Shown one piece after another: positions 8,339 to 39,027 of a DNA stretch of 45,404 nucleotides. The first letter of the stretch is position 1. Every line of letters begins with the position of its first letter. The position numbers and the translations under genes were made by a program. The notes below the pieces were generated by a model. It did no database searches and was not told the origin of the DNA. It worked only from the letters and a program-made list of their open reading frames with translations. Origin of the DNA: Clostridia bacterium (GTDB lineage Bacteria > Bacillota > Clostridia > Oscillospirales > CAG-272); contig JAFVYW010000110.1 in NCBI GenBank assembly GCA_017508465.1, positions 1 to 45,404 on the forward strand, in the 5' to 3' direction.

Positions 8339-8383
8339 AATGTGATCTCCCATTATATGTATAAATTTTTATTAGCCATCAAA

Positions 8384-9211
8384 TCAATTCGACAATGCCG
8401 TGCCGATCACGGTCGCAAACTGTGCGAGGTGGGGAATGGAAAAATGAATACCGTCATACATGCGGTTAAAGTCCTCGAATTTCTCATGACAGAATTCAAA
8501 CTGTGTGAGATTTCCCGTCAGAACAATCTCGCTCACGCCTCGGGAGCGCGCCGCAAAAATCGCGCACATACCAATGGTTTCATAGACGAGATTCATAATG
8601 CCTTTCGCGATATCCGCGCGTTCGGCAATATCCGACACATTACCGAAGTTCGCCGCGGTAAGCTCGCTCGGAACATCGCCAAGCTTTGTCGCGGAGATAT
8701 CTCCGATACGCAGGTCGATGTTCGCAAGGTTACCACCGCTCGCCAGGTCGACGATATGTTCTACCGTCTCGGCGCCGATCATCAGCTTGGATAGTCCGAT
8801 GAGGGAACCGCCACCGACACCCGTACCGCCGAGGTACTCAATGGTGTCTTTTCTCGCGTGGACAATCGCCGTACCTGTACCCATGCTGACAACAAGGCAG
8901 TTGTCAAGGCCGGAAAGATACAGACCGCCTTTACCAATCGAATCAAATTCGGGGACGCTTACCGTAGGTAAGCCATACATTTCGCGCTTCAGATGACTCG
9001 ATCCGACACCCGTCATCAGAACCTTTTCGATGTCCCGAAGCTCAATGCCGTTGTGATCGATGAATTTACCAAATGCGCCATATGCCGATGTGAGCGGATC
9101 GGTCGCGCTCACAAAGAGAGGTTCAATCAGTACCCGTCTTTCACCATCGTCGGAAAAGCCTACAATCTTTGTCGTGCTTCCACCGACATCAATACCAATT
9201 ACCGTTTTCAT
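8384..9211 (-). CDS. coaW: Type II pantothenate kinase (CoaW-like, ASKHA fold)
   Basis: MKTVIGIDVGGSTTKIVGF, GTGTAIV, GGTGVGGGSLIGL and LTAANFGNV track the remembered S. aureus CoaW motifs (GIDAGGTLIKIV, GTGTSLH, GGIGTGGGMIQGL, LTAANFGHV). SD GGGAGAG lies 5 nt upstream. Confidence 0.75.
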   Translation of the reverse strand: MKTVIGIDVGGSTTKIVGFSDDGERRVLIEPLFVSATDPLTSAYGAFGKFIDHNGIELRDIEKVLMTGVGSSHLKREMYGLPTVSVPEFDSIGKGGLYLSGLDNCLVVSMGTGTAIVHARKDTIEYLGGTGVGGGSLIGLSKLMIGAETVEHIVDLASGGNLANIDLRIGDISATKLGDVPSELTAANFGNVSDIAERADIAKGIMNLVYETIGMCAIFAARSRGVSEIVLTGNLTQFEFCHEKFEDFNRMYDGIHFSIPHLAQFATVIGTALSN

Positions 9212-10833
9212 AATGTCTCTCCCTTCTCCCGAAGCAGTTCATCGAGGGCGAGACCGTATTTCTGTGCGATATCACGGGCGTAGGATTTGCCATCAGGCTT
9301 CGTACGCGTGATAAGGAAGGAGCGTCTACCCTCTTCAATGCCAGCCACCAGCGTATCCAACGCGACACCGCCATAACATGCGGAGCGACGGTTGAGTTCA
9401 TCGACGGTGGAGGCGAGGTCATGCAGATGCGTGGAGAAAATACCGCGCACGCGTCTGGCGCAGAGTGCAACCAGAATTTCCGAGGCGATATAGGTCGCCT
9501 CAAAGGCGCCCGTCGAAGAGAAGGACTCGTCAAGAAGCACCACACTATCTCCGCTCAAGGCGTCAAAAATCTCACGCAGACGAGCGCATTCCTCACCGAG
9601 ACGACCTTTGTCAATCGTATCGTCTGCGCCCTCCGGGAAATGCGTGAAGATACCGTCCGCAACGGACAGCTTCGCATAGTCACAGGGAACAGGCAGACCG
9701 AGTTGGAACATCGCCTGCACCGCACCCATGGCAACGGTGATAACCGATTTACCACCACGGTTGGGGCCTGTCAGTATGTAAATGCCCGCGCGCTCATCAA
9801 ATACGAGGTCATTCGTGACCACACTCTCGGTAATAGCGAGAGCAACGCGAGGGTTGTAAATACCCTTCGTAATAAAGGTTTTGTCCTCCCTCGGCGCGAT
9901 TTCAGGGAAGGTGACATTCGCTTTCTTTTTCTCCTTCAGGGAAAGAAGAAGCTCGGTCGCGCGCGAGAGGAATTCGATTTCAGGAATCAATTGCAGAAGG
10001 AAGTCAGCGTTATCGAGAACATATTCGTCCACAATTGCGTGCCATCCCTTGACGGACGAGCGATACACCTCTTCGATGGCATTGTTAAGTGCGCCGACCA
10101 GAGCCTCCTGGCGGTTATCGCTCTGCGTGCCCTTATTGACGGGTGTCAGGGGAGCAATCGTGGTGAATGCATCGTTGCGGAAGGAGAAGCGCAGAATCTT
10201 ATCGAGAAGCTTTCCACCCTTGAATTGTTCAGAGTTAATGGAGATAACGCCCGCATTGACAGGACGAAGCGTCGCATCCAGGTTAATTCCCACGGTGATA
10301 GAATGAATTTCATGAACACGGGAAGAGAGGGCGTTGAGCTTTTCGTTCAGCTCTTTATAGTACTCCGACTGCGTCAGCACCTCAAGCAGACGGGCAAGAG
10401 ATAAAAACGCATCGCTCTTCAACTGGCCACGAAGGGGAGCAAGCCCTTCCCAAAGCACTTCGATAGCACTGACATACAGTTCAATTTCCGTGATCGAATA
10501 CAGATAAGCGTCCGAACCGCTCTTCTCGTCCTCAAGGACACGCAACTGTCGGATATCATCAAGCACAGGGCGTACCTTCCCGAGCGCCGTGACGAGTTCA
10601 GGAATGGAAAGGCAATCCCCGAAGGTCGAAAGACGATAGCGGATTACCTCTTCGTCCATCGTAAAGAAGTCGCAAAGGGAGACGCCGCGCAGAGCAAAAA
10701 TTTCATCCAGACCAAGCTCCCGTGTGACATCGGGGCTGATGTTTGGTCTATGAGCGCTGTCCTGGTGAGAGAGCTTCGACTGTTCACTCGGGTAAAGCAA
10801 ACTGATAAACTGCTTTTCTACCGTTTCACTCAT
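9208..10833 (-). CDS. MutS-family ATPase (domain III/V core only); no mismatch-recognition N-domain and no Smr domain
   Basis: Walker A GPNRGGKSV, Walker B VVLLDESFSSTG and FSTHLHDL match MutS domain V. At 541 aa it is too short for MutS1 or MutS2. AAGGAG SD is present, and its stop overlaps the coaW start (ATGA). Confidence 0.75.
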   Translation of the reverse strand: MSETVEKQFISLLYPSEQSKLSHQDSAHRPNISPDVTRELGLDEIFALRGVSLCDFFTMDEEVIRYRLSTFGDCLSIPELVTALGKVRPVLDDIRQLRVLEDEKSGSDAYLYSITEIELYVSAIEVLWEGLAPLRGQLKSDAFLSLARLLEVLTQSEYYKELNEKLNALSSRVHEIHSITVGINLDATLRPVNAGVISINSEQFKGGKLLDKILRFSFRNDAFTTIAPLTPVNKGTQSDNRQEALVGALNNAIEEVYRSSVKGWHAIVDEYVLDNADFLLQLIPEIEFLSRATELLLSLKEKKKANVTFPEIAPREDKTFITKGIYNPRVALAITESVVTNDLVFDERAGIYILTGPNRGGKSVITVAMGAVQAMFQLGLPVPCDYAKLSVADGIFTHFPEGADDTIDKGRLGEECARLREIFDALSGDSVVLLDESFSSTGAFEATYIASEILVALCARRVRGIFSTHLHDLASTVDELNRRSACYGGVALDTLVAGIEEGRRSFLITRTKPDGKSYARDIAQKYGLALDELLREKGETL

Positions 10834-11622: not shown

Positions 11623-14600
11623 ATGAAACGAATTTGTCGATTTTCAGCCCTTTTTCTTCTGTTATCGATACTCTTCGTGTCGAGTGCGCTCGCCGTCAGT
11701 AGCACAAATGAGAGTTCGCTTTCCTCCGCGGTCTCTTCCATTCCTGGAGCAAGCCGTAATGCAGAGGATGTGGAAGGCGAAAGCTTCAGCCTGCAGAACC
11801 GTCTGACGCCCGCCATTACGGGAACAGCATTCTCCAAGGGCTCCGTTCCTTCCGCTCTCAATGCCTCCTCTCTGAAATTCGGACATCTGCGCAGCATGAA
11901 ATCTGCCGACGGCAAAAACACCTATGCTGAATGGCGCTTCCACCAGGCCGACGCTACCACCATCAACGGCCGGGAGGATGCTTATATCTCTCTTGGAAAA
12001 CGCTCGTATGATATCACTGAATTTTCTTATCAGGTGCTTGAATTTGACCTGACCACCATGACGACCTTCCCGTCGAACCTGTGGATTTTCTCCGAATGGC
12101 GCGGAAGTGACAGTAGTGGTAAGGAGCGCAAACAATTCGGTTCATACAACGATACGGATGGCCTATGGCACTTCGGTGATAAGACCTACGAAATCAAGCA
12201 GAACGAATGGGTACATATCACGCTGGTGTTCGCCATTCGCCGCAGCGGAACCGACGCCTACAACTTCTCTGAAACCGTAGCGAGAATTTTCATCAATGGT
12301 GAGCTTTACAACGAAATCATTCCATACCCTTCTGCAAATCTTGCGAGTGGTATCGGCATGCGTCAGCATTATATTGGTATCGGCTGGCCGTACGGCAAGG
12401 CGGGCATCCGTACAGGCATGGACGATGATTGCTCCGTCTGTATCGACAATGTTGCCCTGACCACATTCGATCGTTCCACTTACCTCGGAAATCTTGAAGC
12501 GGTCTTTGCCGATGATTTCACCAATCTCGGGGCATTCACAGGTGATGAAATTATTTACTCACCCGCCTACACCTTCCCCTCGGACGCGTTCGCCGTCGCA
12601 ACCGTCACAGATAAGAACGGGAACATAACGCCCTACGCTTCTCTTGAGGCCGCGGTCGCATATGTGGAAAACAATGCTCTCACGGACGCGAAAGTCACTC
12701 TGCTCGCCGACCAATACAATCCGATTGATATCCCTGTCGCGCTTACCCTCGATCTGAATGGTTATACATTGTATGGCGATGCGACAACCTCCGGAAATGC
12801 TATTCTCTCCTCGATTGACGGTAACATCTGGACCTTCTCTGCCGCTACCGTGACTTACACACATATTACAATCTATCAGGCGCCCTTCAGCAATCGCGAT
12901 ACCGCCGTTGGCGATTACCTTCTTGTCAGCGGCGACTCCGTCAGCCTTCCCACACCCGAGGTGTTCGTAAATGCCTCGACTGGCGAGCGTCAGGAACCGA
13001 CAGGCAATTGGCTCGCTTATGATACGCAAGGAAATCTTGTGAGTAATTTTCCAACCACAATTACCGCAAGTCAGCTTGGCAAGAGTTATATCCTTTGCCC
13101 CGAATACCTCTCCTCTTCGGTTGCCTTTACCCTGATAAAAGCAGACGGGACCGTAGAGCAACATGAAACCTTGGACGGACTCTACGCCATTCCGAACGGC
13201 GCTACCGTTATTTTGAGAAAAGACACCCCAGCGTCAAAGTCATTCTATGGTCAGAACTATTACCTCGATCTCAATGGTTATACAGTATACACCCTTGACG
13301 GCGCGAAGGAGGTAATTTTCCGTGGAAAAGGCACTATTTATGTGTATTCCTCGCGCAGCGGGGCGAGAGTGTTCACTGGCTCATATATGAAGAATGGTCA
13401 GACCGATGCTAACGGTAATCCCATTTACACGAACCAGGCTGCATTTATCGTCTCTGATGAAAAAGCTGCATCCGGCACCAGATTCATGCTCGGTTACAGG
13501 AACGCGGACAAAGCAACACCCTATCGCATTGATATGTTCTGTGGCTCATTTTCTCAGCTCGGCGCCATATCAAATGTTTCCGTATACCTGAACAATCTGA
13601 ATATCATTGCGGCCGCTGGTGATAATAAGGGCATTTTCACCACCCGTAACAGTGGCTATACCAATCGCTATTGGCAAATCGACAATTGTGATATACTCAT
13701 CACTAATAGCAAACCACTTACTTCCAATGTCGATGTCGGCAACAATACTGGCACATATGTGTTCAACAACACCAATATCCGAGGCAATGGTTCTCTCTTT
13801 GGTTCGGAAAAAGCCGTTACGGCAGACTGTTCCGTCACCTTCAACAATACCAATGTCTATGGCACACACAGCATCAATGCAGGTGCTGCCTCCTACACAG
13901 ATAGCGCAGGCGTGGTTTATCCCTACACGCGCAAGCTTACAATCACTGGAAAATGCTGCCTTCCTTCTTTCCCCTCCAGTGGTATCTCGCTTCCCGAGGA
14001 CCACATCTTTATTCCCAAGGTCTCCAGCTCCTCGAGTGGTTACTTCGCATATCCCGCTTATGCGCAATATGCAAAATTTGAGACAGGCGAATACTCGACC
14101 ATCGGAAGCTCCTACCAGACAAAAGGCTATGTCGGGCATTTGAATGAGTATAAGGACTCTCTGTTCCAGAGCGTTGCCATTGACACCTCTGTCAATGTCC
14201 TTCTTTACCTGCCGAAGTCCATATCCGTCGAAGGCGTGTATCTCGACGATGTCAATCTTCTGAACCCGACCGCAGCGAAGGTTATCAACGGAGATGATTA
14301 CTTTGTGGTCCGCGTCGCCATTCCTCCGAAAGAGGCTTATCAGGAGCATTCGGTCATCCTTCGATTCAAATCCAGCGATCTCACCATCACCCTGGACGCT
14401 TCCCTCCTGCACTATGCAACAAAGCTTTCCTCCGTGGAAGATACATCAAAAACAGGCACATATTACAAGGACTCCCAGGCATTGATGAAATATGTCCTCT
14501 ATTATATCCGCACCGCCGCTACCTCAATCGGAACGGCTTCCGCATCAGACCTTGCCTCGCTTGATGCCCTCCTTGGTGACTTCACCCTGAGTGCGAGCGA

Positions 14601-15015
14601 TAAAGTACTGACCGAAAGTGTTTATACAACAACATCCGTTACGGGCAAGCTCACCGCCGCAACGCTGAACCTCGACAGTAAGGTCGGCATGGTATTTCAG
14701 GTTGCCGAAGGCTTTATCGGCACAATTCGCGTAGATATGCCCAATGTGCCCTCTGTCGTCAGGACATACACGACAGAGGAGCCCGCAACGAGCACGAGCT
14801 TCATCGTTCTCGCAAATATCCCCGCCTACGCCCTGCGCGAAGATGTCACGGTAACGATTACCCCCTCATCAGGAAGCGCTTCCGTGTTCACCTACAACCT
14901 TGCAACCTATGTCAATGGAACCAAGACCGATATCTCCTATGCCGTTTATGCATATGCCAAGGCAGCGAGCAATTATCGCGACGCGTACCCGACCGCATCC
15001 GTTCTTGATGATTAA
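11623..15015 (+). CDS. Large secreted protein (1130 aa), Asn/Thr/Gly-rich and beta-helix-like; paralog of 32356..35937
   Basis: Signal peptide MKRICRFSALFLLLSILFVSSALA. N-rich repeats include NNLNIIAAAGDN, IDNCDILITNS, FNNTNIRGNG and FNNTNVYG. Blocks shared with the second protein are LDLNGYT, YSSRSGARVF and C-terminal FTYNLATYVNG...AVYAYAKAA. Confidence 0.8.
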   Translation: MKRICRFSALFLLLSILFVSSALAVSSTNESSLSSAVSSIPGASRNAEDVEGESFSLQNRLTPAITGTAFSKGSVPSALNASSLKFGHLRSMKSADGKNTYAEWRFHQADATTINGREDAYISLGKRSYDITEFSYQVLEFDLTTMTTFPSNLWIFSEWRGSDSSGKERKQFGSYNDTDGLWHFGDKTYEIKQNEWVHITLVFAIRRSGTDAYNFSETVARIFINGELYNEIIPYPSANLASGIGMRQHYIGIGWPYGKAGIRTGMDDDCSVCIDNVALTTFDRSTYLGNLEAVFADDFTNLGAFTGDEIIYSPAYTFPSDAFAVATVTDKNGNITPYASLEAAVAYVENNALTDAKVTLLADQYNPIDIPVALTLDLNGYTLYGDATTSGNAILSSIDGNIWTFSAATVTYTHITIYQAPFSNRDTAVGDYLLVSGDSVSLPTPEVFVNASTGERQEPTGNWLAYDTQGNLVSNFPTTITASQLGKSYILCPEYLSSSVAFTLIKADGTVEQHETLDGLYAIPNGATVILRKDTPASKSFYGQNYYLDLNGYTVYTLDGAKEVIFRGKGTIYVYSSRSGARVFTGSYMKNGQTDANGNPIYTNQAAFIVSDEKAASGTRFMLGYRNADKATPYRIDMFCGSFSQLGAISNVSVYLNNLNIIAAAGDNKGIFTTRNSGYTNRYWQIDNCDILITNSKPLTSNVDVGNNTGTYVFNNTNIRGNGSLFGSEKAVTADCSVTFNNTNVYGTHSINAGAASYTDSAGVVYPYTRKLTITGKCCLPSFPSSGISLPEDHIFIPKVSSSSSGYFAYPAYAQYAKFETGEYSTIGSSYQTKGYVGHLNEYKDSLFQSVAIDTSVNVLLYLPKSISVEGVYLDDVNLLNPTAAKVINGDDYFVVRVAIPPKEAYQEHSVILRFKSSDLTITLDASLLHYATKLSSVEDTSKTGTYYKDSQALMKYVLYYIRTAATSIGTASASDLASLDALLGDFTLSASDKVLTESVYTTTSVTGKLTAATLNLDSKVGMVFQVAEGFIGTIRVDMPNVPSVVRTYTTEEPATSTSFIVLANIPAYALREDVTVTITPSSGSASVFTYNLATYVNGTKTDISYAVYAYAKAASNYRDAYPTASVLDD

Positions 15016-20477: not shown

Positions 20478-21995
20478 ATGTTAAGTCTGGCCGTCAGAAA
20501 CACCGCGAAGCTTGTGCGAGAAAAATCAAAAAGCGAGAATATCAGGCTCGGTCGTCTTTTTACCAAAAAAGATACGGCGCGCCTTATGGCATCGATGTTC
20601 AATATCGATACCACCCGTAGTGTTTATACCATTCTGGATCCCGGCGCAGGTACAGGCATTTTGTCAGGTGCTATCGTCGAGCGCATCTGCAAAGAAGCCC
20701 CCTCGGTCAAGCAGATTTATCTGACCTGCTATGAGAACAATCCCGAATTCTGCGTCATGCTCGAGGACAATCTTGAGCGCATCCGTAAGAAAGCGCGCCA
20801 TGACTATGGTGTGAAGCTGTTCTATACGGTGTACGAGGAAAACTATATTCTCGATGCGCAGAATCACTATACAGTAACCTTCTTTGATTCCACCCCCGAC
20901 ACCTTCGACCTGATTATCTGTAACCCACCGCAAGGCTTTATCGACAAGGCATCGGACGAGGCGAAGGTGGCAGGTGGTGTCACCCAGATAAAAATCAACG
21001 AGGCCTTTTTATTTGCGAAGATGGCGCGAGGACATCTCGAGGAGGACGGTCAATTGGTCTGCATGCTTCCGACCACCGTCGCGACAGCAACCGAGCTTAA
21101 AAATTTCCGTCTTGAAATGAGCGAGGCGCTCTCGATCCGTCGCATTCACCTGTTTGTCGGTGTGCAGAAAAACAAGAGCCGCGCTACCCCGCTGAAGAAA
21201 AATATCATTATTGCCTATCATAAGGGCGAAGCGCCCGAAACCATTTCCATCACCACATCGACCGACCATGGCTCGCCCGACAAGACCGTCGCCCTGCCAC
21301 CCCTTCCCTATCGGTTTGTGGTAAATAAAGAAGGACTTGCCCTGACCTTGCCTAAGAGCGCCGAGGATACGCAGATTGTACGCTATCTCTCCTCCTTCCC
21401 CGAAACACTCACCTCGCTCGGACTTAAGATGTATACAGGGCTTGTTATCGACTCGCGTGTCAGCGAGATGCTCTTCTCCGAACCGACGCGTGGCGCTGTT
21501 CCCCTTTTCCGTCCAAACGCGATTTCAGGCGGTGTCATCCGTTTCCCCCTGCCGATTAAAAACCAATATATCGCTCCTTTGAATGAAAATCTCATCCAGA
21601 GAAACAAGAATATGATTTTCATCAAGCGCGTACCTGCCAAGGGCGATGAGAGATTTTTAAACTGCGCGATTTATATCGCGGCAGGACTTCCCTCTTACCG
21701 TTATATCAGTACCCATAACAAAATCAACTTTATCGACACCAGAGATAAGAACGCCGAGATGAGTGCGCGCTTCGTCTGGGGATTGTTCGCTCTTCTCAAC
21801 TCGACGATTTATGACCGCTATCTTTCCATCGTCTCAAAATCCACGCAGATAAACTCCAAGGAGATGCAGAACCTTCCTCTGCCCGAGCGCCATATCATCG
21901 AAAACATCGGCGTTCACCTGATGACGCTCCGCGCGACCGATGTCGACTCCTGTGATAGCGTTGTCAATCCTGTCCTTCGCATCCGCAAGCTGTAA
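20478..21995 (+). CDS. Orphan SAM-dependent methyltransferase, gamma-class N6-adenine (Eco57I/TaqI-like) layout with a C-terminal target-recognition-like half; motif IV is NPPQ
   Basis: Motif I ILDPGAGTGIL is followed ~85 aa later by FDLIICNPPQG and then NEAFLFAKMA...DGQLVCMLP. No adjacent endonuclease ORF. Confidence 0.7.
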   Translation: MLSLAVRNTAKLVREKSKSENIRLGRLFTKKDTARLMASMFNIDTTRSVYTILDPGAGTGILSGAIVERICKEAPSVKQIYLTCYENNPEFCVMLEDNLERIRKKARHDYGVKLFYTVYEENYILDAQNHYTVTFFDSTPDTFDLIICNPPQGFIDKASDEAKVAGGVTQIKINEAFLFAKMARGHLEEDGQLVCMLPTTVATATELKNFRLEMSEALSIRRIHLFVGVQKNKSRATPLKKNIIIAYHKGEAPETISITTSTDHGSPDKTVALPPLPYRFVVNKEGLALTLPKSAEDTQIVRYLSSFPETLTSLGLKMYTGLVIDSRVSEMLFSEPTRGAVPLFRPNAISGGVIRFPLPIKNQYIAPLNENLIQRNKNMIFIKRVPAKGDERFLNCAIYIAAGLPSYRYISTHNKINFIDTRDKNAEMSARFVWGLFALLNSTIYDRYLSIVSKSTQINSKEMQNLPLPERHIIENIGVHLMTLRATDVDSCDSVVNPVLRIRKL

Positions 21996-22066: not shown

Positions 22067-22110
22067 ATGCCTCTTCCGAACTTAAATAAGCAGGAGGAGG
22101 CATTTTTTAT
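22067..22110 (+). terminator. Strong intrinsic terminator between the methyltransferase and the GTPase-NYN gene; possible leader attenuator
   Basis: ATGCCTCTTCC (22067-77) pairs with GGAGGAGGCAT (22093-103): 11 bp with one G-U pair and a 15-nt loop, then TTTTTT. The hairpin ends 27 nt before the ATG at 22137. Confidence 0.65.
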
Positions 22111-22136
22111 AGGTAAAAAGAAAGGAGAAAAGACAT

Positions 22137-24713
22137 ATGAAACGAGCCACCATAGGCATCCTCGCGCATGTCGACGCTGGAAAAACAACACTCACCGAGA
22201 GCATGCTTTACCATGTCGGCGCTATCAGACGCATGGGCAGAGTAGACCGTGGCGACGCCTTCCTTGACACGCATTCACTGGAGCGTGAGCGGGGGATTAC
22301 GATTTTCTCCAAGATGGCAACCCTTCCTCTCGGCGATCTTGAAATCACCCTGCTTGACACCCCGGGACATATCGATTTTGTTGCCGAGGTTGAGCGCTCG
22401 CTCGAGGTGCTGGACGGTGCGATTTTAGTTCTTTCCCTCTCCGATCCCATCCGTTCTCATACCAAAACCCTATGGACGCTTTTACGCGCACACCGCATTC
22501 CTACCTTTATTTTCGTCAACAAATGTGACATGCTCCGACGCGGACGCGCCGAAATGATGGAGGAAATCCGCACAGCACTCGGCACGATGTGCGCGGTCGA
22601 TTTCTCCTCGACAAAGACAGACCATTATTTTGAGGATGTTGCTGCCGTCAGCGAACGACTGCTCGGCAAATTCTTTGATGGCGAAGAGATTACCAAAGAG
22701 GATATCTCCGGCGAGATTGCGCGCGCCAACCTCTTCCCCGTCTACTTCGGCTCTGCCCTCTCGGGCGAGGGCGTAGGCGCGCTTCTTGAGGGCATCCGTA
22801 CCTATCTGCCCACGCCAAAATACAGCGATACCTTCGGCGCGAAGGTGCATAAGATTATGCGGGACGCCGATGGCACACGCCTTACCTATCTCAAAATCAC
22901 AGGTGGCAGGCTCAAAACCAAGGACACCCTGAAAATGCGCCTTGCCGATGAGGTTCTTGAAGAAAAAATCGAAGGCATTCGTCTTTATTCCGGTGAAAAA
23001 TACCGTTCCCTTACCGAGGCGGAAGCAGGCATGCTTGTCGCGGTGCAAGGTCTGTCGCGCACTTATGCAGGGCAGGGCTTCGGCGTGGAATACCATGGTG
23101 GCGAGCCGACTTTAACCCCTCTGCTCTCCTATCGTCTCAACCTTCCCGAGGGTATCAACACGCATGAGGCATACCTGAAGCTTCTCGCGTTGCATGACGA
23201 GGACCCTACCCTCGCGCTCGCTTATGACGAGAGCAACCGTGAAATCACGGTAATGCTGATGGGCGAGATGCAGTTGGAGATATTGAAGCGCATCATCTCG
23301 GAGCGCTTCGGTCTTGATGTCACCTTCTCCCATGGCGATATCGTTTACAAGGAGACAATCAAAGAGGCGGTTTTCGGCGCGGGACACTTCGAGCCTCTGC
23401 GTCATTATGCCGAGGTTCATCTGTTAATCGAGCCACTGGAATATGGCGAGGGCGTTGTATTCAAAAGCGAGCTTTCCACCGATATTCTCTCACGAAACTA
23501 TCAGAGACTTATTCTTTCGCACCTGGAAGAAAAAACGCATCGCGGTGTCCTGACAGGCTCTGCGCTGACGGATGTTTCCATTACATTGGTCGGGGGCAGA
23601 GCGCACAACAAGCACACCGAGGGCGGCGACTTCCGCAAGGCGACCTACCGCGCGGTAAGACAGGGACTGATGAAGGCGGAGAATGTTCTGCTTGAGCCAT
23701 ATATGGACTTCATTCTCACGCTTCCCGAAGGGCAAATCGGACGCGCCATGAGTGACCTGGATGCCCTGTATGCAACCTTGGAAGCGCCCGATTTTGATGG
23801 CATCGGAGGCGCAACGCTTCGTGGCTACGCCCCCCTCGCAACCATACGCCACTATCAGAGTGAACTGCGCGCCTACACGAAGGGCGAGGGCGCGATGACG
23901 ATGAGCCTGCGCTCCTATCTTCCCTGTCATAACACCGATGAGGTGGTCGCGCGCTTTGGCTACAATCCTACCCTCGACGAGAGAAATCCGCCCCATAGCG
24001 TTTTCTGTAAAAACGGAACCTCCGTGGTTGTCCCCTGGGATGAGGCAGATGCATGGATGCATGCACCCGTGTTAGAAAAAAGCGCCTCTACCATGCAGGA
24101 AGAAGCGATATCCTCGCCCACACCCGAGTCGAAAAAAACGAGTGGTTACGAGAGCGCCCGCGCTCTTGACAAGGAGCTTCTCGCCATCTTTGAGCGCACC
24201 TATGGTAAAATCAAGCAGAGGAAAATTCACGAGCCGGTCGAATATAAGCCTGAAGAAAAAAAGGTATATAAAAAGAAAAAAGGACCAGCCAAGGAGATTA
24301 TCCTTGTCGATGGTTACAACATCATCTTCGCATGGGAAACACTCGCAAAAATCGCGAAGCATTCCCTCATCGATGCCCGCGACAGTCTTGTACGCATGCT
24401 TTCCAACTATGCGGGATATCGTAAAATCGATATCATTGTTGTGTTCGACGCCTATCTTGTACGCGGCGGTGTCGGCTCTTGCGAAAAGGCAGGAGAGGTA
24501 TTCATTGTCTACACCAAGGAAAAAGAGACAGCGGACGCGTATATCGAAAAAACCTCGGTCGAGCTTGCGAAAGACTATTTTGTCCGTGTAGCAACCAGCG
24601 ATGCGGTCGAGCAGATGATTATTCTCGGCGCAGGCGCATACCGTGTCAGCGCGAGGGAGTTCGAGCGTGAAATACTGCAGGTTGAGGATGAAATTGCAAC
24701 ATTTCTCACATAA
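22137..24713 (+). CDS. Fusion protein: TetM/EF-G-like translational GTPase (aa 1-~640) + K/E-rich linker + Rae1/YacP-type NYN ribonuclease domain (aa 720-858, nt 24294-24710)
   Basis: GTPase motifs are G1 AHVDAGKTT, G2 RGITI, G3 DTPGH, G4 NKCD and G5 GSAL, plus TetM-like LFPVYFGSAL. The C-terminus (EIILVDGYN, VVFDA, ETADAYIEK, VATSDAVEQ, SAREFEREI) parallels B. subtilis YacP/Rae1. AAAGGAG SD is present. Confidence 0.85.
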   Translation: MKRATIGILAHVDAGKTTLTESMLYHVGAIRRMGRVDRGDAFLDTHSLERERGITIFSKMATLPLGDLEITLLDTPGHIDFVAEVERSLEVLDGAILVLSLSDPIRSHTKTLWTLLRAHRIPTFIFVNKCDMLRRGRAEMMEEIRTALGTMCAVDFSSTKTDHYFEDVAAVSERLLGKFFDGEEITKEDISGEIARANLFPVYFGSALSGEGVGALLEGIRTYLPTPKYSDTFGAKVHKIMRDADGTRLTYLKITGGRLKTKDTLKMRLADEVLEEKIEGIRLYSGEKYRSLTEAEAGMLVAVQGLSRTYAGQGFGVEYHGGEPTLTPLLSYRLNLPEGINTHEAYLKLLALHDEDPTLALAYDESNREITVMLMGEMQLEILKRIISERFGLDVTFSHGDIVYKETIKEAVFGAGHFEPLRHYAEVHLLIEPLEYGEGVVFKSELSTDILSRNYQRLILSHLEEKTHRGVLTGSALTDVSITLVGGRAHNKHTEGGDFRKATYRAVRQGLMKAENVLLEPYMDFILTLPEGQIGRAMSDLDALYATLEAPDFDGIGGATLRGYAPLATIRHYQSELRAYTKGEGAMTMSLRSYLPCHNTDEVVARFGYNPTLDERNPPHSVFCKNGTSVVVPWDEADAWMHAPVLEKSASTMQEEAISSPTPESKKTSGYESARALDKELLAIFERTYGKIKQRKIHEPVEYKPEEKKVYKKKKGPAKEIILVDGYNIIFAWETLAKIAKHSLIDARDSLVRMLSNYAGYRKIDIIVVFDAYLVRGGVGSCEKAGEVFIVYTKEKETADAYIEKTSVELAKDYFVRVATSDAVEQMIILGAGAYRVSAREFEREILQVEDEIATFLT

Positions 24714-32355: not shown

Positions 32356-35300
32356 ATGAAAAAAAGAATTTCCCTTTTGATCTTGTGCGCGTGTTTGCTT
32401 TTGGCACTGGTCGGTGTGAGCGCTTTCGCCGCCGACGAAACCGAAACCTCCGCCACAATTTCAACAGCAGAAGATCTCGCTGCCGCACTCGATGCAGATG
32501 GCGAATACATCCTTGCTGCTGACCTCTCCCTGGATGCCAGCACCGACCTGACCGTCGGGGCAACGAATTTTGTCCTCGATCTTGATGGTCACACAATCAC
32601 CTTCCAAGGTCAGAACACCTTCGTAGTAAACGCAGGCTCGAGCGTCACCTTCAGAAATGGTGATGTCCTCGTTGCGCATTCCTACAAAACAGAAGGCCTT
32701 GAAAAAACATTTGATAATTACTTGCCTGTCATACAAAACACAGATGGTTCTTATGCCATTGGCACAGCAGTCGCCATCGACAAGTCCGTCTTTGCAGAAC
32801 AGGATCGCCTGCAAACGCTCGCAGCACCCGCATTCCTTGCAAACGGTGGTTCTGTAACGCTGGACGGCATTTATCTGGAACGAAATGTCTCGGTATCCAA
32901 CGGTGGTCAACTTCTTGAAGCGCTTGATGGCGGTTCCCTTTCGCTTCTCAACTCTGAACTTTATGTCAGTGCCCCCAGCGAAGCGTGGGCGACCATCGAC
33001 ACCTCCGTTATCAAACTCACCCGTGCCGAGAGCGTAACAAAGCTTGTCATCGAAAACTCCTTCGTGCATGAAGTAATGCAAAACTGTGTCTACAATGGTA
33101 CTTATTATTCCAAAGAAGCACCAACGGGAATCAATTCTTCCACCGGCGCTGTCACTAAAGTAGGATACCACCTCGACATAGACGATTCAGCAAACCTTTG
33201 CACGATAGCAGGTACGACGGAAAACACCGGCGTGAAAATCGATATCAATCAAAGCGATTTTATCTGGACACATCACGGTTTTTATGATCCTATTGCAGCC
33301 AACAACACGGTTTCTTTCAACGACACCCTGACAATGAAGAACTCCCGTGTAAAAGTGAACCAGGCTTCCAACTATCAGTCCGTAGGTTTCCAATTTTTCA
33401 GTGCCGACCTCGTATTTGAAAACTGCTATATGGATATGTCAGACGATATTTTTTATATCGGACGCAGCGGCAGTCGTAAAACAACTACATCTCTCACCTT
33501 GCGCGGATGCTATGTAAAGGGTAGCCATTGTATCCGATACGCAACGGACAAAAATGCAATTTATATTGAAAACTCATATGTACAAGGCGCACTCCAACGC
33601 TGGTACAATTACACTTCCACAACCGAAACCGGCTCTCCGAGTGTAACCATCTCCGGAAAACTTTACACGGCGGCGAAAGTGAACGAGGATGCAGACACAA
33701 CCTCGTATTCAGGCTCCAAAAACTCAACTTTTTGGTTCAATGTCAATAAAACCAACGATACCGACGCAATTGTAACGGTAACAACAACAGACGCTATCCC
33801 CGCCTGGACGCACACCATCGCACATCAGGATGGCTCTTACAGCAACTCGATAAACACCAACACCATCGTTGCCAGCGAAGGCGACACTGTAATTCTCTGG
33901 GCAAACACCAAACTCACGGCAAATGGCAATATCAATCTCGTAACATTCGGAGACGCAATTCAGCTGAATATCACTGGCAACGCGAACCCCACTGTTGTCG
34001 ACGGTACACCTGGCAAGGTTTCCTTCATCATGGCCAACGGCGTAAAGCTCTATTATCTCAACAATACCTCTAACACCGTAGCGACCGTCACCAGCATGTC
34101 GGCAGGCTGGACTCTCGTTCTGCAGGAGGATCAGCATGTTCCTACGGCTTATATCAACACCCCCGACTTCTCTTTTGCCATTGACCTCAATGGATACACG
34201 ATCTATGTCTCCTCTGACACAGAAGATGGCACGAAAAATGCCAACGGTTTGTTTCAAATAAACAATGAAAACCAGCACATGCACCTGTACTCCTCCCGTC
34301 CTGGTGCGCGCATTCTTGGTGGACACACCCACGAGGTGAACAAGGAGGGTGCAACAGTTGAAGCTACCCCAAACTATGCTACCAGGTTATTCAACCAAAG
34401 CGCAGGCAACCTGTCTATTGGCTATGACATCAACGGAAATGTCGCTGGTGAGCGCATTGATCTGGTCGCAGGTCAGATGATGCTTCTTAGCGGAGGCAAC
34501 TTCAAAGCAAACAATGTCGCGTGGTATATTGTTTCTGAAGATAACAACTGCGGATTTATGCTTCGATATAGCGCTAATGACAAATCCTTCCATGTTTCAA
34601 ATTCCGATTTCTACATCAAAAAATATGATGTGGTATTTTTCTACAGAGATTATACGGCAGAAAAATCGGATATCGTCCTGGAAAACTGTAATCTGTATTC
34701 CACAACGACAAGCAAATATCTTTTTGCTCCATACCAGGGCAAAACCATCCCAAAGCAAACCGTGCATCTTATCAATACCAATGTATACAATATGAAGGTG
34801 CATTACAATACAAGCACACATGTTTATGTCGAGGGCGAATGTCACCTTCCCTCTATGGTAAATGACCAGATTGAGCTCGCGCCCGGCTATGGCGCTGTTT
34901 ATCAGGGAAATCAGTCGGTAACTCTCTCTGGCACCTCTTATCCGTCCAATTCCCGTCTGAATATGCCCGAGACGACCGATCTCAACAAGTCCTATTCCTA
35001 CAATACCGTGGTCTCCAGATACAGCGATTATAAAGCGAGCATCTACACCAATGTCACACTCGATACCGCGCTCGACCTTCACCTCTATATTCCGAAGGCG
35101 GACGGCATCGCAAGCGTGCTTGTGGATGGCGCAGACTGCTTCGATGCGGACGCTATCGATACACTGAATGGCAAGGATTACTATGTCGTCACCATCGCCA
35201 GAGCGCCGAAGGAGATGTATGAGACCGCGCTTGTAGAAATTATCTTCAAAGACGGCGAGACTTTAACAAAGTACTACACCCTGGAACACTCCCTTCTCAA

Positions 35301-35937
35301 CTACGCAAGCAATCTTCTCGGCATTGACGAGGAGAAGTATAGCGACACAGCGAAGAATTACATCGTCGACTCGAAGAATGTAATGCGCTATGTACTGAAC
35401 TATGCAAAGGAAACCATCGAACGCTATGGCGAGCTCGATGCAGAAACGCTCCTGGCGGTTCAGGGTAAAATCCAAACCCTCCTTGGCGATTTCGCGCTTA
35501 CCGAAAATGACCTCGTCCTGGAAAATGTCAAGACCGACATCCCGACAGGCACCGGTACGGCGGCAGCATTCGACCTTGACTCGAAGGTTGGCTTCGTCCT
35601 CGGCGTTGCCGATACCTTTACAGGTCATGTCAGCGTCACGATGGGCGATCGTGTTGTAACTGGCGATTTCGTTGCTACCAACACCGACACATCAGCTCCC
35701 GTTATGGCAGGATATGTCATTCTCTACGGCATTTTCGCATACGAGCTCTACACGGAAGAAATCACCATTACCATTACAGGTACCAATGGCGATACCGAAG
35801 TCGAAACCACCTTCACTTACAACCTCGCTACCTATGCAAACAGCGGTGTAAGCGAGGATTTAGGAACTGCGCTTTATGCCTATGCAAAGGTCGCAGACAC
35901 CTATGGTCGCACCTACAAGACCTCTACGATTGACTAA
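32356..35937 (+). CDS. Large secreted protein (1193 aa), beta-helix-like; paralog of 11623..15015
   Basis: Signal peptide MKKRISLLILCACLLLALVGVSAFA with AAGGAG SD. Shared blocks are LDLDGHT/IDLNGYT, YSSRPGARILGG and C-terminal FTYNLATYANSG...ALYAYAKVA. Confidence 0.8.
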   Translation: MKKRISLLILCACLLLALVGVSAFAADETETSATISTAEDLAAALDADGEYILAADLSLDASTDLTVGATNFVLDLDGHTITFQGQNTFVVNAGSSVTFRNGDVLVAHSYKTEGLEKTFDNYLPVIQNTDGSYAIGTAVAIDKSVFAEQDRLQTLAAPAFLANGGSVTLDGIYLERNVSVSNGGQLLEALDGGSLSLLNSELYVSAPSEAWATIDTSVIKLTRAESVTKLVIENSFVHEVMQNCVYNGTYYSKEAPTGINSSTGAVTKVGYHLDIDDSANLCTIAGTTENTGVKIDINQSDFIWTHHGFYDPIAANNTVSFNDTLTMKNSRVKVNQASNYQSVGFQFFSADLVFENCYMDMSDDIFYIGRSGSRKTTTSLTLRGCYVKGSHCIRYATDKNAIYIENSYVQGALQRWYNYTSTTETGSPSVTISGKLYTAAKVNEDADTTSYSGSKNSTFWFNVNKTNDTDAIVTVTTTDAIPAWTHTIAHQDGSYSNSINTNTIVASEGDTVILWANTKLTANGNINLVTFGDAIQLNITGNANPTVVDGTPGKVSFIMANGVKLYYLNNTSNTVATVTSMSAGWTLVLQEDQHVPTAYINTPDFSFAIDLNGYTIYVSSDTEDGTKNANGLFQINNENQHMHLYSSRPGARILGGHTHEVNKEGATVEATPNYATRLFNQSAGNLSIGYDINGNVAGERIDLVAGQMMLLSGGNFKANNVAWYIVSEDNNCGFMLRYSANDKSFHVSNSDFYIKKYDVVFFYRDYTAEKSDIVLENCNLYSTTTSKYLFAPYQGKTIPKQTVHLINTNVYNMKVHYNTSTHVYVEGECHLPSMVNDQIELAPGYGAVYQGNQSVTLSGTSYPSNSRLNMPETTDLNKSYSYNTVVSRYSDYKASIYTNVTLDTALDLHLYIPKADGIASVLVDGADCFDADAIDTLNGKDYYVVTIARAPKEMYETALVEIIFKDGETLTKYYTLEHSLLNYASNLLGIDEEKYSDTAKNYIVDSKNVMRYVLNYAKETIERYGELDAETLLAVQGKIQTLLGDFALTENDLVLENVKTDIPTGTGTAAAFDLDSKVGFVLGVADTFTGHVSVTMGDRVVTGDFVATNTDTSAPVMAGYVILYGIFAYELYTEEITITITGTNGDTEVETTFTYNLATYANSGVSEDLGTALYAYAKVADTYGRTYKTSTID

Positions 35938-37422: not shown

Positions 37423-39027
37423 ATGTCACAGCTGAAAAAAGAAATTGAAAGACGGCGCACATTCGCCATCATTTCCCACCCCGACGCAGGTAAAACCACT
37501 CTTACCGAGAAATTTCTTCTCTATGGTGGCGCCATCCAATCTGCTGGCTCGGTCAAGGGAAAGCAATCGGACAAGCACGCCGTATCCGACTGGATGGACC
37601 TCGAAAAGCAAAGAGGTATCTCCATCACCTCGTCCGTTCTTCAGTTTGAATACGATGGATATTGTATCAACATTCTTGACACCCCGGGACACCAGGACTT
37701 CTCCGAGGACACCTATCGTACCCTGATGGCGGCCGACAGCGCCGTGATGGTCATCGACGCGGCGAAGGGCATTGAGCCACAGACGAGAAAGCTCTTCAAG
37801 GTCTGCGCGATGCGCGATATCCCGATTTTTACCTTTATCAATAAAATGGACCGCGAAGCGCGTGATCCCTTTGACCTTCTCGATGAACTCGAAAAAGAGT
37901 TCGGCATCGGCACCTATCCGATGAACTGGCCGATCGGATGCGGTCAAAACTTCAAGGGCGTGTACGACCGCGATAAAAAGAGCATTCTCTCCTTTGGAGA
38001 CTCTCACCGCGGACGCGAGAGAATTCACGGTATCGATTGTGATATCGCCGATACGGAAAAGCTGGGTGAGCTCATCGGCGAGAGACTCCGTACCGAGCTT
38101 GTCGAGCAGGTAGAGCTTCTCGACGGCGCGTGCTTTGATTTTGACCTCGACGCCGTCCGCCATGGCAAGCTCTCGCCCGTATTCTTCGGCTCCGCCCTCA
38201 ACAACTTCGGTGTTGAGCCTTTCCTTGAACATTTCCTTAAAATGACAACCTCTCCCCTTCCCCGTGTGGCAGGTGGCGTGACGATTGATCCCTTTGACGA
38301 GGGCTTCTCCGCCTTTGTATTCAAGATTCAGGCGAATATGAACAAGGCGCACCGCGACCGTATCGCCTTTATGCGTATCTGCTCGGGCATGTTTGACCGT
38401 AGCCGTGACTATTACCATGTGCAGGGTAACAAGTCCTTCCGCCTCTCCCAGCCACAGCAGATGATGGCTTCTGAACGCGAGGTTATCGACACCGCTTATG
38501 CCGGTGATATCATCGGTGTATTCGATCCTGGTATTTTCTCGATTGGTGATACCATCTGCGAGAAGGGACAGAAAATTCGCTTCGAGGGTATTCCCGTGTT
38601 TGCCCCCGAGCATTTCGCGATGGTCGAGCAGGTCGATTCCATGAAGCGTAAGCAGTTCGCCAAGGGTATGAACCAGATTGCCCAGGAGGGTGCTATTCAG
38701 ATTTTCTTTGAACCAAACTCTGGTCTTGAGCGTGTCATCGTCGGCGTTGTCGGCGTGCTTCAATTTGAGGTTCTCGAATACCGTATCAGAAACGAATACG
38801 GCTGCGACCTGCGCCGTTCTCCCCTTCCCTATCAGCAAATCCGCTGGATTGCCAACGAGGGACTGGATCCCAAGACATTGAAACTCTCGCATGACACCAA
38901 ATGGGTGCAGGACTTCCGCGGAAAGAACCTTCTGATTTTCACAAGCGAGTGGGCTATCCGCTGGGTACTGGAGGATAACCCTGGTCTGGAGCTCGCCGAA
39001 TTCTCCCGCGAGGAGGACAACCAATGA
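37423..39027 (+). CDS. prfC: Peptide chain release factor 3 (translational GTPase)
   Basis: RRTFAIISHPDAGKTTLTEK, DTPGHQDF and NKMDR motifs; length 534 aa; overall RF3 layout. Confidence 0.95.
   Translation: MSQLKKEIERRRTFAIISHPDAGKTTLTEKFLLYGGAIQSAGSVKGKQSDKHAVSDWMDLEKQRGISITSSVLQFEYDGYCINILDTPGHQDFSEDTYRTLMAADSAVMVIDAAKGIEPQTRKLFKVCAMRDIPIFTFINKMDREARDPFDLLDELEKEFGIGTYPMNWPIGCGQNFKGVYDRDKKSILSFGDSHRGRERIHGIDCDIADTEKLGELIGERLRTELVEQVELLDGACFDFDLDAVRHGKLSPVFFGSALNNFGVEPFLEHFLKMTTSPLPRVAGGVTIDPFDEGFSAFVFKIQANMNKAHRDRIAFMRICSGMFDRSRDYYHVQGNKSFRLSQPQQMMASEREVIDTAYAGDIIGVFDPGIFSIGDTICEKGQKIRFEGIPVFAPEHFAMVEQVDSMKRKQFAKGMNQIAQEGAIQIFFEPNSGLERVIVGVVGVLQFEVLEYRIRNEYGCDLRRSPLPYQQIRWIANEGLDPKTLKLSHDTKWVQDFRGKNLLIFTSEWAIRWVLEDNPGLELAEFSREEDNQ

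Follow-up and report, generated by a model that had tools for sequence, protein, structure and literature searches.

The window, i.e. the whole 45,404-nucleotide stretch analysed here (contig JAFVYW010000110.1 of a Clostridia bacterium, assembly GCA_017508465.1), carries a gene whose product joins a translational GTPase (trGTPase) to a Rae1/YacP-type NYN nuclease (Table 1). The GTPase occupies aa 1-599 and is followed by a folded extension (596-642), a tether of ~77 aa (643-719) and the nuclease (720-858). An earlier sequence-only reading of this DNA had described one 858-codon ORF with its own SD, and both the ORF list and the upstream sequence bear this out. Other genes in the window encode ABC exporters, FAD oxidoreductases, LuxS, Pfs, acetate kinase, GreA and RF3, and the upstream neighbour of the fusion gene encodes a type II DNA methyltransferase. 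The hairpin found in the intervening spacer has a folding z-score of -1.6, which is not significant, and gave no match in an Rfam search. It could serve as terminator of the preceding methylase gene or as a leader attenuator, and its link to the fusion gene is uncertain.

Table 1. Features of the fusion gene and its upstream region (coordinates refer to the window; aa, residues of the encoded protein)
Feature	Position	Strand	Basis or remarks
GC-rich hairpin and U-run, in the 141-nt upstream spacer	22069..22108	+	GCCUCUUCC-N15-GGAGGAGGC, then U6
SD-like AAAGGAG	22121..22127	+	9 nt 5' of the ATG; read from sequence
Complete fusion gene, 858 codons plus stop	22137..24713	+	ORF list; single uninterrupted ORF, ATG start
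G domain, aa 4-225: AHVDAGKTT, RGITI, DTPGH (catalytic His78), NKCD, GSAL	22146..22811	+	Pfam GTP_EFTU 7e-49
Domains II and III, aa 235-397	22839..23327	+	Pfam EF-G_D2 (weak, below cut-off), EFG_III
Domain IV, aa 401-515	23337..23681	+	Pfam EFG_IV 5e-18
Domain IV tip loop GRAHNKHTEGGDFR, aa 487-500, fusion-family signature	23595..23636	+	Alignments and family conservation
Domain V, aa 517-599	23685..23933	+	Pfam EFG_C 1.5e-15
Conserved GTPase C-terminal extension, aa 596-642	23922..24062	+	Helix, beta-hairpin, short helix; SVFC and VPW motifs
Flexible K/E-rich tether, aa 643-719	24063..24293	+	Low AF2 pLDDT, low conservation
Conserved helix within the tether, aa 671-695, ...DKELLAIFERTYGKIKQR, motif IFExTYGK	24147..24221	+	AF2 and conservation
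Rae1/YacP-type NYN endonuclease domain, aa 720-858, without the Rae1 C-terminal tail	24294..24710	+	Pfam NYN_YacP 3e-43

As anticipated in the sequence-only reading, the Pfam models GTP_EFTU, EFG_III (aa 349-397), EFG_IV, EFG_C and NYN_YacP all matched this one polypeptide; the four GTPase models scored above their cut-offs, and EF-G_D2 (aa 235-313) remained below its own (21.8 bits versus 27). The same architecture and length recur in each of the 120 best database matches (52-95% identity) and in each of the 150 best representatives of clusters formed at 50% identity. When 78 loci were scored, i.e. 77 independent genome loci and the window itself, one uninterrupted ORF spanned both modules in 76. 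As the architecture is common to the relatives and encoded by a single ORF in nearly all of these loci, an assembly or frameshift artefact is excluded, and the suggested covalent fusion, as opposed to two genes split in the linker, is upheld. Both catalytic centres are intact in the window protein and in ~99% of 266 family members.

Fusions of this kind have already been reported. TetM-like/NYN_YacP fusions in Clostridia were listed by Atkinson (2015, BMC Genomics, PMC4342817; sequences in Additional file 8), and the same clostridial fusion was described by Matelska et al. (2017, NAR, PMC5499597). Over residues 1-857 the window protein shares 49% identity with the published Ruminococcus albus 7 protein YP_004106010, and it has in common with this family the single-polypeptide architecture, an about equal length and the motifs GHFEPLRHYAEVHL, GRAHxKHTEGGDFR, SVFC...VPW, IFERTYG and DGYN/FDA/ETAD/TSD. 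It belongs to the majority sub-group, which is devoid of the Rae1 C-terminal tail, and nothing essential distinguishes it from the published proteins. Judged by these alignments, the window gene is another member of a known clostridial family. The remark that no characterised member with such an architecture was known is thus only partly correct, as the architecture was on record in 2015 and 2017; on the other hand, no experimentally characterised fusion member was found in the literature, where the family stems from sequence surveys.

All five translational-GTPase motifs noted from the sequence are confirmed and are also conserved among the relatives. In the 266-sequence alignment motifs G1-G5 are kept in 259-266 members; K16, D74-G77, K129 and D131 are invariant, and H78 is present in 265. 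Foldseek aligned ~690 columns of the AF2 model with EF-G structures (E ~1e-51). By its motifs, the GTPase module is predicted to be complete and catalytically competent. The tip loop of domain IV aligns with TetM 504-517 (GLYYSPVSTPADFR) and Thermus thermophilus EF-G 570-583 (GSYHEVDSSEMAFK), and H490 is therefore taken as the counterpart of EF-G H573. Four of its residues are strongly conserved (H490 in 246, K492 in 256, H493 in 264 and D498 in 265 of the 266 sequences). The block 481-520 as a whole matches the P-loop block in conservation (0.81), which speaks for a specific contact in the decoding region.

The region between the two enzymes had been described as a Lys/Glu-rich linker of ~80 aa. 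The composition (15 K and 11 E) and the length (77 aa) hold, but a folded extension precedes this linker and a conserved helix lies within it. The extension, not covered by any Pfam or NCBIfam model, has AF2 pLDDT values of 76-89 in the 10-residue blocks across 591-640, falling to 62 at 641-650, with helices at 600-607 and 637-640 and strands at 621-625 and 628-632. Several of its residues are nearly invariant (Y609 in 265, S621 in 264, F623 and G627 in 263, H642 in 254, C624 in 245 and C597 in 240 of 266). The tether has pLDDT <50 at 648-657, 659-672 and 694-717, and is poorly conserved and gap-rich at 641-680 and 701-720 of the 266-sequence alignment. Its helix spans residues 671-689 in the AF2 model (block pLDDT 60 at 671-680 and 71 at 681-690) and is marked by I684 (251/266), G690 (227), L681 (213) and T688 (210); the motif is also present in R. 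albus 7 ('ELMAIFERTYGSI'). The spacing between SVFC and DGYN ranges from 81 to 213 residues (median 98). Thus the tether, though variable in sequence, has a length floor, with never fewer than about 60 disordered residues.

The nuclease domain recognized in the sequence-only reading, with its acidic active-site residues, is confirmed: NYN_YacP (PF05991) matches aa 722-854 with 148 bits (cut-off 24.6; profile positions 1-135 of 166), and the last ~139 aa align to residues 2-135 of Bacillus subtilis Rae1/YacP (5MQ8/5MQ9, E = 3e-25). D725, D771, D800 and D822 correspond to Rae1 D7, D53, D81 and D104, and are kept in 264-265 of the 266 sequences; the D7N D81N double substitution abolishes Rae1 activity (PMC10351889). 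Rae1 of B. subtilis is 42% and that of Clostridioides difficile 39% identical to the domain, and the two Rae1 proteins are 35% identical to each other. By these identities, the domain sits within the diversity of genuine Rae1 proteins. The conservation of the NYN aspartates, together with that of the GTPase motifs (265-266/266), indicates that both enzymes of the fusion are under purifying selection. The Rae1 C-terminal tail is retained in members of the C. thermocellum type and lost in most others, including the window protein, a loss that we count against the explanation preferred below.

The established picture of Rae1 has changed recently. Cleavage in the A site, which the sequence-only reading treated as established knowledge, was superseded in 2025, when the same laboratory withdrew this model in favour of a cut ~12 nt upstream (-12), where the tail of a stalled or collided ribosome lies (PMC12407103). 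Acting on collided ribosomes, Rae1 generates substrates for tmRNA, and its own association with ribosomes is transient (PMC13622287).

The fusion family was found in at least 589 species-representative genomes and forms more than 150 clusters at 50% identity. Its hosts include Lachnospiraceae, Oscillospiraceae, Ruminococcaceae, Acutalibacteraceae, Anaerovorax and others, and the nearest relatives of the window protein come from Eubacteriales/Clostridia MAGs. The family is widespread in gut and soil Clostridia and abundant in human and animal gut Firmicutes. The 592 neighbouring ORFs fall into 519 clusters, the largest of which occurs in only 8 of the 78 loci, and among these loci there is no conserved neighbour, operon, antitoxin, immunity or sensor partner. 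The cysS-mrnC-rlmB-rae1-sigH context is missing in the window and in the 77 related loci. Genes for HTH proteins adjoin decayed copies of the fusion. Carriage by phages or plasmids was considered and rejected, as the records so labelled are bacterial chromosomal DNA (chromosome-like or misfiled). Hundreds of species have the gene, once per locus, and a neighbour-joining tree, albeit crude and with long branches, roughly follows taxonomy. The fusion is therefore a chromosomal, stand-alone and mostly vertically inherited gene of housekeeping character.

Based on these observations, we suggest that this fusion of an EF-G/Tet-like trGTPase with a Rae1 endoribonuclease may anchor on non-elongating ribosomes to cut mRNA outside the A site, an explanation to which we give an even chance of being correct. 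Its role would then probably be that of a stalled-ribosome mRNA cutter rather than of a tetracycline-resistance protein. The GTPase module in its GTP form would bind the ribosomal factor-binding site, and domain IV would enter a vacant or abnormal 30S A site, by which ribosomes that are not elongating normally could be recognized. The tethered nuclease would cut mRNA outside the A site of the stalled ribosome, the upstream ribosomes on the truncated mRNA would be passed to tmRNA rescue, and GTP hydrolysis would release the factor. Such GTPase-gated anchoring would take the place of ribosome binding by free Rae1, which is transient and self-guided. In the solved ribosome complexes of EF-G and TetM, domain IV fills the 30S A site. 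As Rae1 cuts at -12 and domain IV would occupy the A site, we infer that the cut of the fusion falls outside it; this steric argument is one of homology to the EF-G and TetM complexes, and the distance to be spanned between the factor site and the mRNA exit or collision interface is a rough estimate. Only tentatively, we also consider that the fusion could be a GTP-gated sensor/effector, whose EF-G-like module would probe the A/factor site and whose tethered Rae1 would cut at the ribosome boundary, leading to tmRNA rescue.

The target of the nuclease might instead be rRNA, which the tethered NYN domain of a docked GTPase would process or inactivate (in maturation, quality control of defective ribosomes or turnover during starvation). 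The present data fit mRNA and rRNA substrates alike, rRNA is within reach of a ribosome-anchored tethered nuclease, and the first prediction for NYN_YacP, drawn from the position of rae1 in the cysS-mrnC-rlmB-rae1-sigH locus, was a part in rRNA/tRNA maturation. However, the fusion gene is located outside this rRNA-processing locus and outside any conserved operon, its NYN domain resembles genuine Rae1 to the degree seen between two Rae1 orthologues, and experiments have established no substrates of Rae1-type NYN domains other than translated mRNAs, so that we regard an rRNA target as unlikely.

We find it improbable that GTPase-driven docking, as the sequence-only reading proposed, places the NYN active site in the decoding centre, where A-site mRNA would be cut in the manner of RelE or Cue2. 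The proposal that the GTPase carries the nuclease to the ribosome is supported. Both modules are ribosome-directed, and the original docking model of 2017 had Rae1 in the A site; moreover, the tip of domain IV differs from those of EF-G and Tet proteins, hence the pose could differ too. Delivery into the decoding centre itself, however, appears sterically implausible: by analogy with the known complexes, a 15-kDa NYN domain would find no space in a 30S A site that holds domain IV. With at least 60 disordered residues, the tether would be needlessly long for a site beside the factor's own tip, and A-site cleavage has been given up for Rae1 itself in favour of the -12 cut at the tail of the stalled ribosome (PMC12407103).

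A further possibility, raised by Atkinson (2015), is a TetM/TetO-type protection protein with an accessory RNase, possibly a new nuclease-assisted form of resistance. The collinearity with ribosomal-protection proteins noted from the sequence holds insofar as TetO (257 bits) and TetM (244 bits) are the best full-length PDB matches and tet_protect (NF012153) is the top NCBIfam model; in addition, Atkinson's HMM classification puts the TetM-like/NYN_YacP fusions in the Tet subfamily, and some members are named TetM/W/O/S-family RPPs in RefSeq. The fusion, however, scores 428.7 bits against tet_protect, for which 775 is the curated cut-off, and likewise stays far below the cut-offs of the Tet(M), Tet(Q), Otr(A) and M/W/O/S models. 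The loop residues of TetM are replaced as well: Y506, Y507, S508, P509 and V510 align to A489, H490, N491, K492 and H493, so that Pro509, which sterically displaces tetracycline (PMC7456112), has become a lysine (Lys in 256/266), and 'YYSP' is absent from the family (0/265). Domains IV-V score higher against EF-G (70.5 bits) than against TetO (62) or TetM (53) and keep the EF-G histidine at the tip. Unlike tet(M)/(O)/(W), which are carried by mobile elements, the fusion is chromosomal, mostly vertically inherited and not found on genuine plasmids or phages. Going by these scores and residues, the fusion is not a genuine Tet ribosomal-protection protein and its kinship to TetM is superficial; we therefore hold a role in tetracycline protection to be very improbable.

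Finally, a translation-targeting toxin or abortive-infection effector that stops protein synthesis upon phage attack, also put forward in the sequence-only reading, seems hardly credible, for although ribosome-dependent mRNA nucleases are frequent among toxins, a type II DNA methyltransferase gene lies directly upstream in the window and Matelska et al. (2017) report HTH-protein neighbours for some members (these also occur beside decayed copies), PADLOC gave no match for the fusion, the methylase adjoins it in only 2 of the 78 loci, no conserved antitoxin, immunity or sensor partner accompanies it, and its single occurrence per locus in hundreds of species, broadly taxonomic tree and lack of genuine phage or plasmid carriage do not fit such a role.

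If the fusion is indeed such a GTP-gated sensor/effector, it would be a counterpart, in bacteria, of GTPase-assisted no-go decay, and many Clostridia might carry out the Rae1 pathway in this form. The existence of the fusion also suggests that much of the gut Clostridia may run the pathway differently from Bacillus. Rae1 has lately become central to ribosome-collision rescue in Gram-positive bacteria (papers of 2025 and 2026), and a natural Rae1 tethered to a lockable ribosome-binding GTPase makes ribosome recognition directly testable. Locking the trGTPase, by a non-hydrolysable GTP analogue or by mutation of His78, might give the first practical view of Rae1 engaged with the ribosome, so far impossible for the free protein because it binds only transiently; to our knowledge, no structure of ribosome-bound Rae1 exists. 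The invariant features of the family are now defined, namely the tip HxKHTEGGDFR, the post-domain-V extension, the IFExTYGK helix and the minimum tether length. Furthermore, some members bear TetM/W/O/S tetracycline-resistance labels in RefSeq, despite missing both the curated threshold and the drug-displacing residues, and resistome surveys may consequently tally a housekeeping gene as an antibiotic-resistance determinant.

Several known systems are close to the fusion. It has the five-domain fold of EF-G, which is the best match for its domains IV-V and shares the tip histidine (T. thermophilus H573, fusion H490), but it scores below the cut-off in every EF-G model, lacks 4 residues in loop I of domain IV, has a shorter G' region, like that of Tet proteins, and adds a C-terminal nuclease. 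TetM and TetO (PDB 3J9Y, 4V6V), the best full-length sequence matches, have a similar G domain and the same layout, and by analogy the fusion would be expected to use their factor site and to insert domain IV into the A site; it differs from them in the extension, the tether, the nuclease and the more EF-G-like domain IV. B. subtilis Rae1/YacP and the fusion nuclease belong to one NYN_YacP fold family, share the four active-site aspartates (D7 and D81 included) and presumably have their chemistry and a ribosome-bound RNA target in common. However, Rae1 is a free protein of 170 aa with a C-terminal tail, which binds ribosomes by itself, whereas the fusion domain is tailless and tethered to a trGTPase, and the locus that encodes Rae1 in B. 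subtilis and C. difficile does not house the fusion gene.

SmrB of Escherichia coli and Cue2/NONU-1 of eukaryotes are collision-activated mRNA endonucleases. Their SMR-domain folds are unrelated to the fusion nuclease, and they are recruited via collision-interface contacts or ubiquitin-binding domains, not by a translational GTPase; we know of no GTP gating in these systems. The logic proposed for the fusion is nonetheless alike: recruitment to a stalled or collided ribosome, a cut near its boundary and the production of a rescue substrate.

The EF-G/Tet-like translational GTPase and the Rae1/YacP-type NYN nuclease are joined on one polypeptide, in which Pfam detected GTP_EFTU, EFG_III, EFG_IV, EFG_C and NYN_YacP together. 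The C-terminal 148 residues aligned with residues 2-135 of the B. subtilis YacP/Rae1 crystal-structure sequence (5MQ8/5MQ9; E = 3e-25), and the N-terminal 710 residues with TetO, TetM and EF-G from end to end. An AlphaFold2 model computed from 36 family sequences had a mean pLDDT of 80.5, with both the EF-G-like domains and the NYN domain confident; the pTM was 0.55, and the inter-domain arrangement is therefore uncertain. Foldseek matched about 690 columns of this model to EF-G structures (E about 1e-51). As the ORF, the Pfam matches, the alignments and both structural analyses agree, the earlier sequence-only reading described the protein correctly. No NCBIfam model matched the NYN domain, nor did any match the preceding extension and tether.

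Features of the fusion gene, its product and the surrounding DNA (aa, residues of the fusion protein; other positions are nucleotides of the window)
Feature	Position	Strand	Remarks
Fusion ORF	22137..24713	+	single ORF, ATG start, 858 codons
AAAGGAG	9 nt 5' of fusion start codon	+	sequence
GTP_EFTU	aa 4-225		Pfam, E = 7e-49
EF-G_D2	aa 235-313		Pfam, slightly below cut-off
EFG_III	aa 349-397		Pfam
EFG_IV	aa 401-515		Pfam
EFG_C	aa 517-599		Pfam
NYN_YacP	aa 722-854		Pfam, 148 bits vs cut-off 24.6
Eco57I-like type II DNA methyltransferase	20478-21995	+	PADLOC MTase_II 5e-62
GC-rich hairpin GCCUCUUCC-N15-GGAGGAGGC, then U6	22069-22108		sequence
2633-aa Ala/Glu/Arg/Lys-rich protein	452-8353	-	no Pfam match
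540-aa MutS domain V protein	9208-10833	-	no SMR domain
1130-aa Ser/Thr-rich protein	11623-15015	+	no Pfam match
1193-aa Ser/Thr-rich protein	32356-35937	+	no Pfam match
prfC (RF3)	37423-39027	+	translational GTPase

The fusion is real and conserved. The same Pfam set was found on a single polypeptide in all 120 best matches from a collection of 5.8 billion proteins (52-95% identity, 840-884 aa), and the best 150 representatives of 50%-identity clusters (E ≤ 1e-177) were all fusions, a handful of them truncated fragments. When one genome was scanned for each GTDB species, at least 589 genomes encoded relatives. The 80 loci retrieved came from Lachnospiraceae (Blautia, Dorea, Agathobacter, Butyrivibrio, Lachnospira, Herbinix and others), Oscillospiraceae (Intestinimonas, Flavonifractor, Lawsonibacter, Oscillibacter), Ruminococcaceae (Faecalibacterium, Ruminococcus), Acutalibacteraceae, Anaerovorax and other Clostridia. 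An uninterrupted ORF spanned both modules in 76 of the 78 loci scored (77 genome loci and the window), which bears out the claim of one gene rather than two. Four NYN-only proteins of 247-294 aa (P0348, P0371-P0373) were considered as a natural split system and rejected, P0372 being, by its context, a decayed remnant with an adjoining 113-aa GTP_EFTU fragment. Decayed copies lie on two JGI metagenome contigs (loci L084, 3211-4660, and L085, 2102-3551), each made up of a 113-aa GTP_EFTU fragment, a 98-aa fragment and a 294-aa extension-tether-NYN ORF, with HTH regulators flanking.

The architecture had been taken to be unrecorded, which is wrong. Additional file 8 of Atkinson 2015 (PMC4342817) lists it in R. 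albus 7, E. eligens, E. rectale, B. proteoclasticus, C. cellulolyticum, C. lentocellum, C. phytofermentans, C. thermocellum and D. hafniense, and the R. albus 7 protein, also of 858 aa, is 49% identical to ours over residues 1-857. Atkinson also put forward a nuclease-based mechanism of resistance and suggested testing the 'rRNA RNase ability' of these proteins. Matelska et al. 2017 (NAR; PMC5499597) noted a TetM-like/NYN_YacP fusion in some Clostridia and termed its role unclear. Beyond these two sequence surveys, our literature search, which included the Rae1 papers of 2023-2026, turned up neither a mention of the fusion nor experiments on it; the window gene is therefore a new member of a family already known but uncharacterised.

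Both catalytic centres are retained almost throughout the family. In an alignment of the fusion with 265 full-length relatives (n=266, identity as low as 39%), K16, D74-G77, K129 and D131 of the GTPase were present in 266/266 sequences and the catalytic H78 in 265/266. The acidic NYN positions said to be retained are indeed so: D725, D771, D800 and D822, none of them lost in the window protein, each occur in 264-265 of the 266 sequences and correspond to Rae1 D7, D53, D81 and D104 in the alignment to 5MQ8; D7N D81N is the published Rae1 catalytic mutant (PMC10351889).

Between the two enzymes, residues 596-642 after domain V (window 23922-24062) are modelled with moderate confidence as a small conserved fold (helix, beta-hairpin, short helix), in which Y609, S621, F623 and G627 are nearly invariant and C597, H598, C624 and H642 mostly conserved (n=266). 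From conservation counts alone, the latter four could form a metal-binding site. The PHROGs phage-protein family phrog_6880 ('translation elongation factor') matches residues 1-634 with 430 bits, reaching into this extension. The tether that follows (aa 643-719) is variable in sequence and disordered in the model, apart from a single conserved helix (motif IFExTYGK) at about aa 671-695. SVFC and DGYN lie at least 81 residues apart, with a median of 98 and a maximum of 213. By our own rough estimate, the 77 residues have a contour length of ~270 Å and a random-coil span of ~60-70 Å.

Ribosome structures show EF-G and TetM at the factor site, their domain IV occupying the A site of the 30S subunit. 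Rae1 is a translation-dependent mRNA endonuclease. We consider it an evenly balanced proposition that the fusion anchors through its GTPase on a stalled or collided ribosome and that the tethered NYN domain cuts outside the A site. The GTPase module would settle where both the factor site and the A site can be accessed, i.e. on a stalled or collided ribosome. Its domain IV would fill the A site, so that the nuclease could not be there, and the tether, whose minimum length is conserved, would give the NYN domain access to mRNA at the boundary of the ribosome or at its neighbour. GTP hydrolysis would then release the factor. Rae1 itself acts on collided ribosomes, yielding tmRNA substrates (PMC13622287).

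The main rival, which we regard as unlikely, has rRNA as the substrate of the nuclease. Delivery of the NYN domain into the A site, as the sequence-only reading had it, is quite improbable. That interpretation was right about the architecture and the general idea of delivery, but its A-site premise is outdated, the A-site model of Rae1 having been withdrawn in 2025 (PMC12407103), and the position is the one that domain IV would take.

A true role in tetracycline resistance, to which the collinearity with TetM might point, appears very improbable. The fusion scored 428.7 bits against the NCBIfam tet_protect model, whose cut-off is 775, and fell below threshold for all Tet-specific and EF-G models. 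TetM carries a proline, Pro509, at the tip of loop 3 of domain IV, and this residue overlaps the site of tetracycline (PMC7456112). When the two proteins were aligned pairwise, residues 504-517 of TetM (GLYYSPVSTPADFR) lay opposite GRAHNKHTEGGDFR of the fusion, where Y506, Y507, S508, P509 and V510 are replaced by A489, H490, N491, K492 and H493. K492 and H493 are near-invariant across the family, and a search of its members for 'YYSP' found none. Domains IV-V alone matched EF-G best (70.5 bits, versus 62 for TetO and 53 for TetM); the tip histidine of EF-G (H573 in T. thermophilus) has its aligned counterpart in H490, and domain IV loop I carries a 4-residue deletion. The kinship with TetM is thus superficial. 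As judged from these comparisons, the fusion is not a Tet protein: its G domain is Tet-like, and the tip of domain IV is EF-G-like yet unique. Since block 481-520, with this tip, is as conserved as the P-loop block, the thresholds were failed and domains IV-V are EF-G-like, the GTPase represents a distinct trGTPase lineage.

The fusion gene is liable to mis-annotation as a tetracycline-resistance gene. RefSeq labels some members, e.g. in NZ_CP143948.1 (Agathobacter rectalis) and the cluster of protein P0020, as 'TetM/TetW/TetO/TetS family tetracycline resistance ribosomal protection protein', a name that the tet_protect score and the loop residues do not justify. Being far below the cut-off and devoid of the drug-displacing residues, such proteins are likely false positives in resistome surveys.

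In the window, the fusion gene has FAD-dependent oxidoreductases to either side; its other neighbours are two ABC exporters, the Eco57I-like methyltransferase, LuxS, Pfs, acetate kinase, GreA and RF3. Across the 78 loci, the 592 neighbouring ORFs fell into 519 clusters, the commonest of which, a MATE transporter, occurred at variable positions in 8 loci; no conserved operon or regulator was found in them. PADLOC gave no match to the fusion and the methyltransferase adjoins it in only 2/78 loci, which led us to reject a defence island and makes a toxin or abortive-infection role hardly credible. No restriction partner of the methyltransferase was seen among the adjacent annotated genes.

Carriage by plasmids or phages was also rejected. 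The Monoglobus and Agathobacter 'plasmid' records with the fusion look chromosomal. Of two faecal 'Bacteriophage sp.' contigs from a phage collection, MT835563.1 (locus L081) and MT835514.1, we inspected the former, which is flagged UNVERIFIED and is probably bacterial DNA because it carries housekeeping genes (NAD(P)HX dehydratase, CitMHS transporter, peptidoglycan-binding protein) and no phage hallmarks. In a neighbour-joining tree of 78 proteins, Lachnospiraceae grouped together, as did Oscillospiraceae/Ruminococcaceae. Varied neighbours, the lack of a PADLOC match, chromosome-like records and this tree indicate a stand-alone, resident gene with mostly vertical inheritance, and not a mobile resistance or defence gene.

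The hairpin and U6 upstream end about 28 nt 5' of the start codon, so that a promoter would hardly fit between them and the fusion. Either they are the terminator of the methyltransferase gene, in which case the fusion would be served by read-through or by a promoter upstream, or they act as a leader attenuator; the z-score for folding was only -1.6, and Rfam had no match within the window.

Elsewhere in the window, the 2633-aa protein, overlapped by long opposite-strand ORFs, is probably a coiled coil, and the two Ser/Thr-rich proteins, whose hydrophobic N-termini resemble signal peptides, are probably cell-surface proteins. The prfC gene lies 13 kb downstream of the fusion, a linkage not seen in the other loci among the 78. 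The 540-aa protein, with MutS domain V ATPase as its only domain, may be one of the MutS2-like proteins, a group that has a Bacillus ribosome-collision sensor among its members.

The binding of Rae1 to the ribosome is too transient for structural capture (PMC13622287), and the fusion provides a natural means of studying how it is engaged by Rae1. The window NYN domain shares 42% identity with the Rae1 of B. subtilis and 39% with that of C. difficile, and these two share 35% with each other; it thus falls inside normal Rae1 diversity. The best 120 matches of a Rae1 profile search were Peptostreptococcaceae and Bacillus proteins only. Free Rae1 ends in a ~30-residue C-terminal tail, which is kept by C. 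thermocellum-type fusions but missing from most members, the window protein included. Moreover, free rae1 resides in a cysS-mrnC-rlmB-rae1-sigH locus, whereas the fusion is a gene standing on its own.
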